This document shows, piece after piece, positions 22,771 to 27,176 of a DNA stretch of 64,000 nt. The number at the start of each line of letters is the position of its first letter. Within the stretch, counting starts at the first letter, position 1. The DNA comes from Promethearchaeia archaeon. Its GTDB lineage: Archaea > Asgardarchaeota > Lokiarchaeia > Sigyniarchaeales > SOKP01. The position numbers and the translations under genes were made by a program. Location of the stretch: positions 19,037 to 83,036 of the forward strand of contig JAHQWJ010000139.1 in assembly GCA_029856125.1 (NCBI GenBank), read 5' to 3'. The notes below the pieces were generated by a model that saw only the letters and a list, made by a program, of their open reading frames with translations, was not told the DNA's origin and ran no database searches.

Positions 22771-23268
22771 GTGAAGTTCATAACCAATACTTTGATAAAA
22801 ATGCTAAAAAAAAAAACTTATTATGCTTTATCGGTCTTCTTTATCGTATTCTTAACCATAGCAGGCGTTAATGTTAGAGCACACCCACCTGATGCTATGT
22901 CCCTGGAATTCAATTCAGGTACAAATACACTTAAAGTTTCAATCACGCACGGAGTTTCTGATAACACATCTCATTATGTAGTTTCAGTAGTAGTTAGAGT
23001 TAATGGATCTATAGACCAGACCGAATTCTACACAAGCCAACCCGATGTGGCTTTTTTTATTTATGAGTATACTGTAATAACAAATAATGGGTCTACTATT
23101 CAGGTAACAGCAACATGTAGCCAAGGAGGCTCCATAACACGAACATTGGGGGGTGAAAGCACACCTACCGATGGAGCTATTCCTGGATATATGGGGCTAT
23201 ATATAGTTCTAGTAGTTTCTGTAATTACTCTACTAATGACTTTTCGTAAAAAATTAAAAAGAATATGA
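22771..23268 (+). CDS. Secreted His-rich beta protein (SOR/desulfoferrodoxin-like) with Loki-CTERM-type anchor
   Basis: Signal peptide ending VRA-HPP; H..., HYV, C; C-terminal IPGY + TM + RKKLKR. Start may be ATG 22801. Confidence 0.7.
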   Translation: MKFITNTLIKMLKKKTYYALSVFFIVFLTIAGVNVRAHPPDAMSLEFNSGTNTLKVSITHGVSDNTSHYVVSVVVRVNGSIDQTEFYTSQPDVAFFIYEYTVITNNGSTIQVTATCSQGGSITRTLGGESTPTDGAIPGYMGLYIVLVVSVITLLMTFRKKLKRI

Positions 23269-24284: not shown

Positions 24285-24473
24285 TTACTGCTTCTTCCTG
24301 GTAATATAAGGAAACTTATCAGAGTATTCGAATAACTCTGGATAATTGAGTTTCCACCCTCGAGATTTAAGTATTTTTTTCCTATTTTTTTGTTTATGGA
24401 TGACTTTTCTACTTATTCTATTTCGAGGATATTTCTTCTTTTTTCTTCTTTGCTTCTGATATATTACTGACAT
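24285..24473 (-). other. Doubtful basic ORF overlapping a long hairpin (24310-24355); possibly a degraded gene or ncRNA
   Basis: K/R-rich low-complexity ORF; strong GGTGAGGTGG SD-like motif upstream is not matched to its ATG. Confidence 0.25.
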
Positions 24474-25062
24474 GCTAATCCGTCATATCGAATTAGCCAC
24501 CTCACCAATTAGGTCTTAATACATTTCTTGTTCAATTAAATGTTACAATATGGTAAATGAAAGTAAATTTTAATTCAATATAAATAAGATATCAGTTCTC
24601 TTATTTAAACCTTTCCTTCTTCTGTATTATTAATCTATCCGTAAATATCACTAGGAAAATCGCTCGATTTAAATAAATAATCACAAAAATGAAGGTACTC
24701 ACTTTTTTGAGCCATTATTTAATATATCTTCTATCTATTTTTAACTACTTCCTAATATAATTTCAACAACTAAATTAGTTGATGGAAGTTAAAAATCTTG
24801 CTAATGTGTTTTCCGAAGTAGTCTTCAAGGACTACAAGTGTGCTATTGAAACGAGCATTGAAAACAGTCTGTTTTTTTGAAAGAAAAAAAAGCCAATAGA
24901 ACCTGGCAACAATAATTCCCCAGATTTAAGTTCAATTTACTAAAATAATGATTCTTTTCTAACATTTTTCATCAAATGTTAAAACTAAGTTACTTTTTAT
25001 TTGATTAAATAAAGTAGATCGTAAGTAATATAAAGAAGAATTAAAATTTAAAAATATCTGAT

Positions 25063-27045
25063 TTAGTTTTTGTATTCATCTGAGGATTTCATTTCATCTT
25101 CATCCTCGATTTCTTCATCATCTTCGGGCTTAGGCTTATAAAAAGGTTCTGAGACTATATCATGTTCTGGTTCGGGAATAGGTTCGTATACTGGTTCCGG
25201 TTCTGATTCCGGCTCTGGTGTAGCTTCATATACTGGTTTTGATTCTGGCTCTGATGTAGCTTCATATACTGGTTTTGATTCTGGCTCTGGAGTAGGTTCA
25301 TATACTGGTTCTGGTTCCGGTTCTGGCGTAGGTTCGTACATTGTTTCATATACTGGTTCCGGTTCTGGTTCCGGCTCAGTTTCTAGCGTAGGTTCATATA
25401 CTGGTTCTGGTTCTGGCGTAGGTTCATATACTGGTTCAGGCTCTGGCGTAGGTTCATATACTGGTTCAGGCTCTGGCGTAGGTTCATATACTGGTTCTGG
25501 CGTAGGTTCATATACTGGTTCTGGTTCTGGAGTAGGTTCATATACTGGTTCTGGTTCTGGAGTAGGTTCATATACTGGTTCTGGTTCCGGTTCTGGCGTA
25601 GGTTCGTACATTGTTTCATATACTGGTTCCGGTTCTGGTTCCGGTTCTGGTTCCGGTTCTGGTTCCGGCTCAGTTTCTAGCGTAGGTTCATATACTGGTT
25701 CTGGTTCTGGCGTAGGTTCATATACTGGTTCAGGCTCTGGCGTAGGTTCATATACTGGTTCTGGTTCAGGCTCTGGCGTAGGTTCATATGCTGGTTCAAG
25801 TTCAGGCTCTGGAGTAGATTCATATACTGGTTCTGGTTCCGGTTCAGTTTCTAGCGTAGGTTCATATACTGGTTCTGGTTCTGGCGTAGGTTCGTACATT
25901 GTTTCATATACTGGTTCCGGTTCTGGTTCCAGTTCTGGTTCCGGCTCAGTTTCTAGCGTAGGTTCATATACTGGTTCCGGCTCTGGCGTAGGTTCATATG
26001 CTGGTTCAAGTTCAGGCTCTGGAGTAGATTCATATACTGGTTCTGGTTCCGGTTCAGTTTCTAGCGTAGGTTCATATACTGGTTCTGGTTCTGGTTCTGG
26101 CGTAGGTTCATATACTGGTTCAGGCTCTGGAGTAGATTCATATACTGGTTCTGGTTCCGGCTCAGGTTCAGGAGTAGATTCATATACTGGTTCTGGTTCA
26201 GGTTCTGGCGTAGGTTCATATACTGGTTCTGGCTCTGGAGTAGGTTCATATAATGGTTCTGGCTCTGGAGTAGGTTCATATAATGGTTCTGGCTCTGGAG
26301 TAGGTTCATATACTGGCTCAGGCTCTGGAGTAGGTTCATATACTGGCTCAGGCTCTGGAGTAGGTTCATATACTGGCTCAGGCTCTGGAGTAGGTTCATA
26401 TACTGGCTCAGGCTCTGGAGTAGGTTCATATACTGGCTCAGGTTCCCGCTCAGGTTCAGGAGTAGGTTCATATACTGGTTCTGGTTCCGGTTCTGGGGTA
26501 GGTTCATATACTGGTTCTGGTTCTGGTTCTTGGGTAGGTTCATATACTGGTTCCGGTTCTGGTTCTTGGGTAGGTTCATATACTGGTTCTGGTTCTGGCT
26601 CAGCTCTTTTTTTTACAATGGGTTCATCAATTATATATTTTTTATCAGGAGCTTTTTGAGTTATCGTAAATGGATTACTCTCAGGTTGTATCATTTGAGG
26701 TCCCAGAAAAATGTTTTTTGGTTTTATTTTTTTCTTATCTATTAGTAGTTCTAATTCGAAGCTTCCTGGAGTGAGGAAATCTACGCCATCAATATCATTT
26801 TTTAATGTAGTATCCCATTCAATCGTTTTACTCTCTGATTTTTTTATATTATCCTTAGATTCTGGTCTGAGCTTTTTAGTTAGTAAAACTTTAGTCTGAA
26901 ATATTATCTTTCCTTGAAAATCGTGTTCCTTCTTCCCTTTAGTTGTCCACCTCAGGTGAAAACCATCAGAATGTTTCCATAAAACATATCCTAAGAATTG
27001 ACCTGAACTGAAATCTGTACGACCTTTGATCTCTTTTACATTCAT
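25063..27045 (-). CDS. N-terminal beta-rich domain fused to ~480 aa Pro/Glu tandem-repeat region ([10 protein letters not shown])n and acidic tail
   Basis: Open frame; likely start MNVKE at 27045. Globular part [17 protein letters not shown]...DGVDF...NPF; about 42 YE-containing repeats counted by eye. Confidence 0.85.
25160..26600 (-). repeat. Intragenic tandem repeat array; 30-nt base unit with 6-nt (EP) expansions and higher-order duplications
   Basis: TACTGGCTCAGGCTCTGGAGTAGGTTCATA in perfect tandem around 26311-26400; VYETMYEPT and ELEPAYEPT blocks recur. Confidence 0.97.
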
Positions 27046-27176
27046 TTTTATTTCTCTTAAATTATGAAGTAATTTCAGATAAATTATGTAACAATTTGTT
27101 AATAAATTTTTACTAAACGAAAAAGTATTTGAGATATGTTTTGTTCTATTTCTTATTAAAAAATTAGGTAACAAAA

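Follow-up and report, generated by a model that had tools for sequence, protein, structure and literature searches.

Proline-rich polyelectrolytes, such as the Glu-Pro segments of TonB and procyclin and the PEVK region of titin, exist as extended chains that are rich in polyproline II. Some of them work inside the cell. For example, titin PEVK and the neurofilament side-arms are repeat-built polyproline-II-rich segments, and their length sets distance or force. The PEVK region of titin is rich in Pro, Glu and Val (PMC7691732). In this study, we analyzed a 64,000-nt stretch of DNA (the window) from contig JAHQWJ010000139.1 of a Promethearchaeia archaeon, in which the gene P0001 encodes a small folded head joined to a very long acidic tail of Glu-Pro repeats punctuated by Tyr (the EP-Tyr array). 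The head is a clear sequence member of an unannotated beta-sandwich family and has kept its core residues. The other members of this family almost always carry signal peptides, whereas the Lokiarchaeial clade to which P0001 belongs is leaderless and fused to the EP-Tyr tail.

The tail of P0001 was compared with the closest described systems. Procyclin (the EP form of PARP, PF05887) shares the long acidic (Glu-Pro)n repeat, which is expected to be an extended rod, but the match is compositional only, with 64.3 bits against a gathering threshold of 100 bits. Procyclin has a signal peptide and a glycosylphosphatidylinositol anchor, whereas P0001 has no hydrophobic segment at either end and its C-terminus is acidic; conversely, procyclin has neither the periodic Tyr nor the N-terminal folded domain of P0001. 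The (EP)n-(KP)n spacer of TonB is similar in being a rigid, extended Glu-Pro link from an anchor to a distant site. Unlike TonB, P0001 has no N-terminal transmembrane (TM) anchor, no KP half and no TonB_C domain, and its array is about ten times longer and punctuated by Tyr. The heptad of the RNA polymerase II C-terminal domain (Pol II CTD) also differs, because the Tyr spacing is 10, 12 or 14 in P0001 and 8, 10 or 12 in its orthologs, with no conserved Ser/Thr-Pro heptad. Since P0001 lacks the features that define the procyclin, TonB and CTD-like families, we did not regard it as a member of any of them. Compared with titin PEVK, the tail of P0001 has no Lys and is a pure polyanion, its units are much shorter, and there is no sequence relationship. 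By analogy only, we infer that P0001 may work like the EP rods and the PEVK-type springs. For the head, the best fold likeness was to the MSCRAMM/Als/CNA adhesins (CLIPPER, Als9-2, CNA N2 and ACE19), which are secreted. Several domains of this type bind extended or polyproline-II-type peptides.

We believed, with middling confidence, that P0001 stays in the cytoplasm and serves as an extended polyanionic tether, or as a multivalent docking strip, held in place by its adhesin-like head. The basic immunoglobulin (Ig)-like or adhesin-like head would anchor the protein to a partner, possibly another protein, a peptide or a surface of negative charge. With Pro and Glu making up a third each and positive charge lacking, the tail cannot fold compactly. 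Its ~480 residues would form an extended polyproline-II-rich polyelectrolyte spanning tens of nanometers; by analogy with such chains, the contour length would be ~150 nm (480 residues at 0.31 nm each). The evenly spaced (V/I)-Y-E-P motifs would be the only hydrophobic "stickers" on this spacer, and the anchored bristle or tether would thereby also present many weak, identical docking sites, while its length would be tuned through the gain and loss of units. Repeat-built acidic Pro-rich tethers were already known. What is new here is the leaderless adhesin-like head, the Tyr-periodic polyanion and the restriction to two Lokiarchaeial genera.

Architecture and conservation of the repeat tail

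The protein consists of four parts, namely a 133-aa beta-sandwich head, a Lys-rich linker, approximately 43 Tyr-ended units and an acidic tail (Table 1). This agrees with the original prediction, which was made from the letters of this DNA and had described a globular head, a repeat region of ~480 aa and an acidic tail. It had also claimed ~42 Tyr-punctuated Pro/Glu repeats; we counted 43 Tyr-terminated units and 44 Tyr beyond residue 150. The commonest unit was a 10-residue form (14 copies), followed by a 12-residue form (6 copies) and rarer variants, and the spacing of Tyr was 10, 12 or 14. Since the spacer grows or shrinks by whole EP dipeptides, every unit had an even number of residues. 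Across the 42 cores, taken as a ten-residue window around each Tyr, the Tyr and the following Glu were invariant. The pair after Tyr was EP in 33 cores, ES in 4, ET in 3 and EA in 2, exactly the YE(P/S/T/A) core with a varying EP spacer that had been proposed, and Val preceded Tyr in 35 of the 42.

The composition of the two halves of the protein was very different. The repeat region was 33% Pro and 32% Glu with a charge of about -163 and had no cationic residues, while the first 150 residues were basic (pI 9.5); the whole protein had no Cys. The GC content was 41-44% over the array and ~31% in its surroundings, as expected from the CCN and GAR codons of the repeat. Among the units of the window array, the proportion of synonymous differences (pS) was 0.35 and that of nonsynonymous differences (pN) was 0.10, giving a pN/pS of 0.29. 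There were 29 distinct nucleotide versions among the 43 units, and identical peptide units occurred in six nucleotide versions. This indicates that the array is not a stack of identical copies and that selection acts on the repeat peptide.

Repeat number was then compared between species, and it varied strongly. Complete orthologs ranged from 247 to 660 aa, and the window protein was the longest complete one seen. The units were lineage-specific: 10 residues long here, EPEPEPVY in a sister genus, and EPEPTYEP, EPEYEPAMP or a 16-residue unit elsewhere. In 44 ortholog tails, the aromatic positions were occupied by 352 Tyr, 53 Phe and 25 Trp; the aromatic residue was preceded by Val or Ile in 56% of cases and followed by E-P in 53%, and the preferred spacings were 12, 8 and 10, never 7. 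The Tyr positions, whose conservation the original prediction had made decisive, were thus largely kept, with the limit that the tail of one ortholog (P0009) has no Tyr at all. The conserved repeat core is (V/I)-Y-E-P, with Thr not conserved, and selection keeps the (V/I)-Y pairs while the length of the spacer drifts.

The Lys-rich linker was also found in the orthologs. Most orthologs end in the cap Y-E-S-L-P-E-x-K-P-E plus a Glu/Lys-rich tail, and the window protein has a diverged form of this cap. In addition, an amphipathic, helix-like motif, R-[IV]-x-x-W-[LF]-x-Q-L-x-x-x-R-K, occurs once or twice in each of the more divergent orthologs and is absent from P0001. It sits between repeat blocks or at the extreme C-terminus (loci L010, L015, L017 and L018; proteins P0003, P0007, P0009, P0014, P0016 and P0162) and, judging from its pattern, could be a docking or membrane-binding helix.

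Table 1. Features of the P0001 gene, with positions in the window
Feature	Position	Strand	Remarks
Complete gene P0001	25063..27045	-	660 aa + stop; start at MNVK conserved in orthologs
Head domain, predicted all-beta sandwich, unannotated family	26647..27045	-	aa 1-133; AlphaFold2, phmmer
Lys-rich linker	26599..26646	-	about aa 134-149; pLDDT drops to 68
Tandem array, ~43 (EP)n-V-Y-E-P-T-P units	25164..26598	-	aa 150-628; unit table; Tandem Repeats Finder (single array, periods 30 and 36 nt, 35-42 copies)
C-terminal cap + acidic tail	25066..25163	-	sequence; related cap in orthologs
Conserved upstream element AGTAAAAATTTATTAACAAATTGTTACATAATTTATCTG, likely promoter	27076..27113	-	alignment of 14 orthologous upstream regions + sequence

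Head domain and export signals

Searches of the head against Pfam, NCBIfam and PDB sequences and profiles gave no name for it. The Pfam hits Herpes_U55 and DUF6941 were rejected as sub-threshold noise, and the ESM Atlas search returned only unnamed clusters with scores below 0.9. In contrast to these searches for a name, phmmer against 1.84 billion cluster representatives found 273 relatives at E<=1e-3 and 80 at E<=1e-10, covering query residues 1-147, which also confirmed the reading frame. All database names were "hypothetical protein", and in the literature we found no paper describing the motif or the family and nothing relevant on Asgard Pro-rich repeat proteins. The family is mostly bacterial and secreted and has the signature W-x4-G-x-H-L-R-W-T-T … D-G-x-D-F … N-P-F. 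W23 and G115 are invariant in it and H30, G45, G87 and P121 are at least 90% conserved; all six are kept in P0001, and the domain-family profile matched the window gene at E 7e-48. The head thus defines a sizeable unannotated family, with hundreds of clusters at 50% identity, that needs a model.

The relatives fell into two kinds. Close relatives (45-85% identity) begin at residue 1 with M-N-V-K and run into EP/Tyr tails. Distant relatives (23-43% identity) are single domains of ~155 aa or 2-7 tandem copies, almost always behind a hydrophobic leader, and some of them sit in large surface-type proteins with NHL propellers or He_PIG, PKD or GDSL modules. By a scripted count, none of the 108 leader-bearing proteins had an EP tail, while 36 of the 66 leaderless proteins had a tail with at least 40% Glu+Pro; the remaining leaderless proteins were mostly truncated at contig ends or had mixed tails. 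In alignments, the MNVK start of the orthologs falls on the region of the first strand in the mature bacterial domain. On a FastTree phylogeny of 169 domains, the leaderless state is clustered; three changes suffice to explain it, and a single origin is possible. The leaderless clade shows a secreted module that was put to new use without its leader.

The fold of the head was predicted with AlphaFold2. The single-sequence model had a predicted local distance difference test score (pLDDT) of 33 and was replaced by a model from a 68-sequence alignment, which is a confident all-beta sandwich of ~10 strands over residues ~16-133 (mean pLDDT 91.4; predicted template modeling score, pTM, 0.84). Foldseek had been proposed as a check on the head, and against PDB it gave no match at E<=1e-3, the best being 3.7e-3, to cohesins. 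The top matches in VIA-align were CLIPPER (9ifr, Z 7.7), Als9-2 (2y7l, 7.6), CNA (2f6a, 7.3) and ACE19 (7.2); the last three are adhesin domains that bind peptides or collagen. Overall, the matches to adhesin and pilin Ig-like folds had Z scores of 7.0-7.7, with ~100 residues aligned, a root-mean-square deviation of ~3 Å and 6-13% identity. Because a Z score below 8 in VIA-align can mean only a common arrangement, we termed the head an "adhesin-like sandwich" and not a member of any of these families.

Export signals were evaluated by the maximum Kyte-Doolittle hydropathy over 19 residues (KD19). There was no signal peptide, TM segment or C-terminal anchor in P0001, with a maximum KD19 of 0.66 over the whole protein, nor in any of the ~60 leaderless relatives. 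This bears out the claim of the original prediction that the protein has no export signal. As a control, an open reading frame (ORF) of the same window, 22771-23268 (+), had a KD19 of 1.97 at the N-terminus and 2.23 at the C-terminus. This ORF, which has no Pfam match, has the layout typical of a sorted surface protein, with a hydrophobic leader at one end and, at the other, a C-terminal TM segment and then a basic tail (…GYMGLYIVLVVSVITLLMTFRKKLKRI). This indicates that the organism uses ordinary export signals, and P0001 has neither. Since export signals are absent from all orthologs, we took the cytoplasm as the probable location of P0001.

The main and serious rival, which we regard as unlikely, is that P0001 is a surface stalk or coat exported by an unconventional route independent of a signal peptide; its head would bind either the envelope or a ligand outside the cell, with the EP-Tyr rod as an external spacer of the procyclin, TonB or fibrillar-adhesin type. 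The original prediction had held that signal peptides on orthologs would make the protein an ordinary surface stalk. The orthologs have none, but nearly all of the distant, mostly bacterial homologs of the head carry one, and because of these secreted homologs and the adhesin-like fold we did not dismiss a surface role. It is favored by the 108 homologs with hydrophobic N-terminal leaders, many of them in tandem or fused to NHL, He_PIG or PKD, by top fold matches that are surface adhesins and pilins, and by the compositional match to procyclin PF05887. Thr-Pro-rich acidic repeats are also typical of glycosylated archaeal and bacterial surface stalks. However, the ~60 leaderless relatives have no leader, TM segment or C-terminal sorting signal, and a classical leader and C-terminal anchor are present on another protein of the window; P0001 has no Cys; and PF05887 scores 64 bits where 100 are required, with no stretch passing alone. 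A surface stalk would also need an export route that is not known.

Several points weigh against the cytoplasmic tether or docking strip that we prefer. No binding partner was identified. Glu/Pro/Thr-rich repeat stalks are typical of surface proteins, and nearly all head homologs outside the Lokiarchaeial clade look secreted. The closest folds of the head model are surface adhesins and pilins, and with Z below 8 even these matches may show only a common beta-sandwich arrangement. Finally, roughly one in two genomes of the two genera yielded no match to the gene, which hence appears dispensable, although this absence is partly an assembly failure.

Other roles considered for the array

EP/Tyr linkers were also found on another protein of this organism. 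Windows of comparable EP richness occur in only three ORFs of the genome, one of which is a Ras-family GTPase (G000:C63:150983-152731, locus L055, - strand; Pfam Ras E 3e-52) with a ~380-aa disordered extension. In this protein, EPEPELEYEAPPVPEP-type motifs occur three times in the linker to a terminal Zn ribbon. In this organism, cytoplasmic-type proteins can thus carry EP/Tyr linkers. It is conceivable, though quite unlikely, that the head is a peptide-binding module for (V/I)-Y-E-P, displayed either on tails of its own type or on further EP/Tyr linkers, for instance the one in the Ras-family GTPase. The family would then assemble into a multivalent, length-tunable head-to-tail network in the cytoplasm, or would coat membranes or the actin cytoskeleton. 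If this were true, a eukaryote-style sticker-and-spacer scaffold would have been invented within Lokiarchaeia from a formerly secreted bacterial-type domain.

A very unlikely explanation is that the tail, like the acidic tails of nucleoplasmin or prothymosin-alpha or like calsequestrin, is a polyanionic sink or chaperone; it would bind polycations (basic proteins such as histones or ribosomal proteins, or polyamines) or divalent metals. The net charge of about -155, the combination of a beta-sandwich core with an acidic tail, the ZIP metal transporter gene downstream in several species, and a strongly basic 62-aa ORF 590 nt downstream would all fit it. However, ZIP is convergent and not co-transcribed, and since synteny alone is not evidence, the metal link was set aside. 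Nucleoplasmin-type cores were not among the listed fold matches of the head, though the list does not exclude them, and charge buffering needs no periodic, conserved V-Y-E-P. The basic ORF is not co-distributed with the gene either, as 11 genomes have both and 11 have the basic ORF only.

This basic ORF, 24285-24473 (-), encodes 62 aa with a pI of 11 and 23 Lys+Arg, and the C-terminal half is SRGWKLNYPELFEYSDKFPYI. Pfam gave no match for it. Intact copies are present in 22 of 135 family genomes from four genera, and the substitutions show a bias to the third codon position. The 48 nt spanning its start are identical in four species and include a GCTAAT…ATTAGC hairpin just 5' of the ATG. As a polycation partner of P0001 it was rejected, because half of the 22 genomes, including those of two head-less genera, have no head.

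The original prediction had likened YEPT to the YSPT of the Pol II CTD and had proposed a phospho-Tyr/Thr array. We consider it highly improbable that the tail is such a signaling array, in which a kinase would modify the repeats and the phosphorylated motifs would recruit reader domains as in the Pol II CTD or EPIYA. In its favor, conserved Tyr residues recur at regular intervals amid acidic and Pro-rich sequence, E-P-V-Y-E is reminiscent of motifs of the E-P-I-Y-A type, and the genome has one ORF with a kinase domain. Against this, the EPEPEPVY units of the sister genus have no Thr, the period is 8, 10 or 12 and not 7, Phe or Trp occupies 18% of the aromatic positions, and P0009 has no Tyr, so that the CTD analogy and the phospho-Thr idea found no support. 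Phospho-Tyr signaling found no support either. A Pfam search of the genome for kinases gave a single generic kinase-domain match, of a type also seen in bacteria and other archaea, and found no dedicated Tyr kinase. Pfam SH2, WW, SH3_1 and profilin had no match in the genome, with the limit that the control genomes were also silent for SH2, WW and profilin, which leaves the absence of these three unproven.

Gene, distribution and assembly

The ORF of P0001 opens with an ATG at 27045 (MNVKEIKG…). An upstream TTG (27174) used as the start would add 43 residues, none of them hydrophobic in character, and would raise the maximum KD19 only to 0.86. MNVK is the N-terminus of every ortholog, and because a stop codon lies directly 5' of it in the more distant orthologs, we took the ATG as the start. 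The in-frame upstream extension was rejected since it is not hydrophobic, is interrupted by stops in the distant orthologs and owes its apparent conservation to the promoter region. The upstream element of Table 1 contains a TATA-like TTTATTAA at 27099-27106, 54-61 nt 5' of the ATG and common to 14 species. It is likely a promoter with a B recognition element (BRE) and TATA box, judging from the archaeal consensus.

The gene neighborhood was conserved, with an MFS or GNAT gene divergent upstream and ZIP convergent downstream, followed by SDR, rhodanese and flavodoxin genes. The gene was nearly always in single copy; one genome (G032) had a second, fragmentary match. The conserved neighborhood indicates that the gene is vertically inherited and not part of a mobile element. 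The closest loci belong to metagenome-assembled genomes (MAGs) of Promethearchaeota/Promethearchaeia (Lokiarchaeia), and the source had rightly been taken for an Asgard archaeon. The EP-Tyr gene is a genuine, chromosomally fixed, lineage-specific gene of one Lokiarchaeial family.

Directly 3' of the gene lies a 590-nt spacer (24474-25062) with a mean identity of 85% over four species. Its fully invariant blocks include AATCAGATATTTTTAAATT, directly after the stop codon, and a GTAGTCCTTGAAGACTAC hairpin. There was no ORF, Rfam or tRNA match in it. It may be a 3' untranslated region, a terminator region or a new RNA.

The distribution was determined by running the domain profile against 400 genomes of the phylum. 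There were matches in 22 of 41 genomes of the window's genus and in 29 of 54 of one sister genus, and also in a single genome from a different family of the same class. Leaderless proteins with an EP tail were seen in only two genera, both belonging to the same Lokiarchaeial family (51 of 134 genomes). The head profile found none in the 82 other Asgard genera, including a family with closed genomes of 4.4 and 6.0 Mb. The outlier (L020, G057:C22; P0027), a leaderless homolog of 132 aa, consists of the head alone and lies on a contig of 4783 nt; its genome is assigned to the class of the window. The NCBI label for a protein identical to P0027 is "Candidatus Deferrimicrobium sp.", which may be a conflict of taxonomic labels or a binning problem. 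In G035 and G017, the locus is present without the gene, which indicates that real loss also occurs.

Absence and array length were both affected by assembly. In G014, the ZIP contig stops within the C-terminal part of the EP-Tyr array, and the head-based search scored this genome as lacking the gene. Three genomes (G229, G265 and G015) have N gaps inside the array, and many database entries of the relatives are marked "partial". An 890-aa "long form" in the single-contig G229 was rejected, as an N gap joins the array in frame to a catalase-peroxidase-like ORF. The longest exact internal repeats of the window array measured 122, 116 and 115 nt, and the first of these corresponds to five identical 30-nt units in a row. 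Reads of 150 nt can thus bridge most of the array, and the five-unit run cannot be counted reliably. Given these exact repeats, and the contig ends and N gaps in relatives, the copy number is uncertain; in an assembly of the short-read type, the exact unit number is uncertain by a few units. The array routinely breaks short-read assemblies of these genomes, and it is at the same time a natural length-polymorphic marker for strain typing.

The original prediction had named an assembly artefact as what would undo it, and the same architecture recurs in dozens of related genomes. That the gene is an artefact or a decaying, non-functional low-complexity ORF is hardly credible: arrays at contig ends or with N gaps in several relatives, exact repeats of up to 122 nt and further frames open across the repeat speak for it, but intact head-plus-array genes stand at a conserved locus in more than 50 genomes of two genera, the units have a pN/pS of 0.29, the promoter element and the C-terminal cap are conserved, and 29 nucleotide versions among 43 units make wholesale mis-assembly unlikely.

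One relative may be a mosaic. The 3' end of the gene and the downstream spacer in G028 (L009) are nearly identical to those in G007 (L002/L022), and yet the two heads are 62% and 86% identical to the window head. Intragenic recombination or gene conversion, or else a chimeric bin, could account for this pattern.

Asgard archaea are the closest known relatives of eukaryotes, and the organization of their cytoplasm, cytoskeleton and membranes is an open question. Conserved and apparently intracellular proteins that combine a folded anchoring domain with a very long, polyanionic, Pro-rich, Tyr-punctuated disordered array are of a type common in eukaryotes and rare in prokaryotes. If the repeats of P0001 are docking sites or a spacer, this family would provide a tractable example of multivalent organization by disordered regions in Asgard cells.

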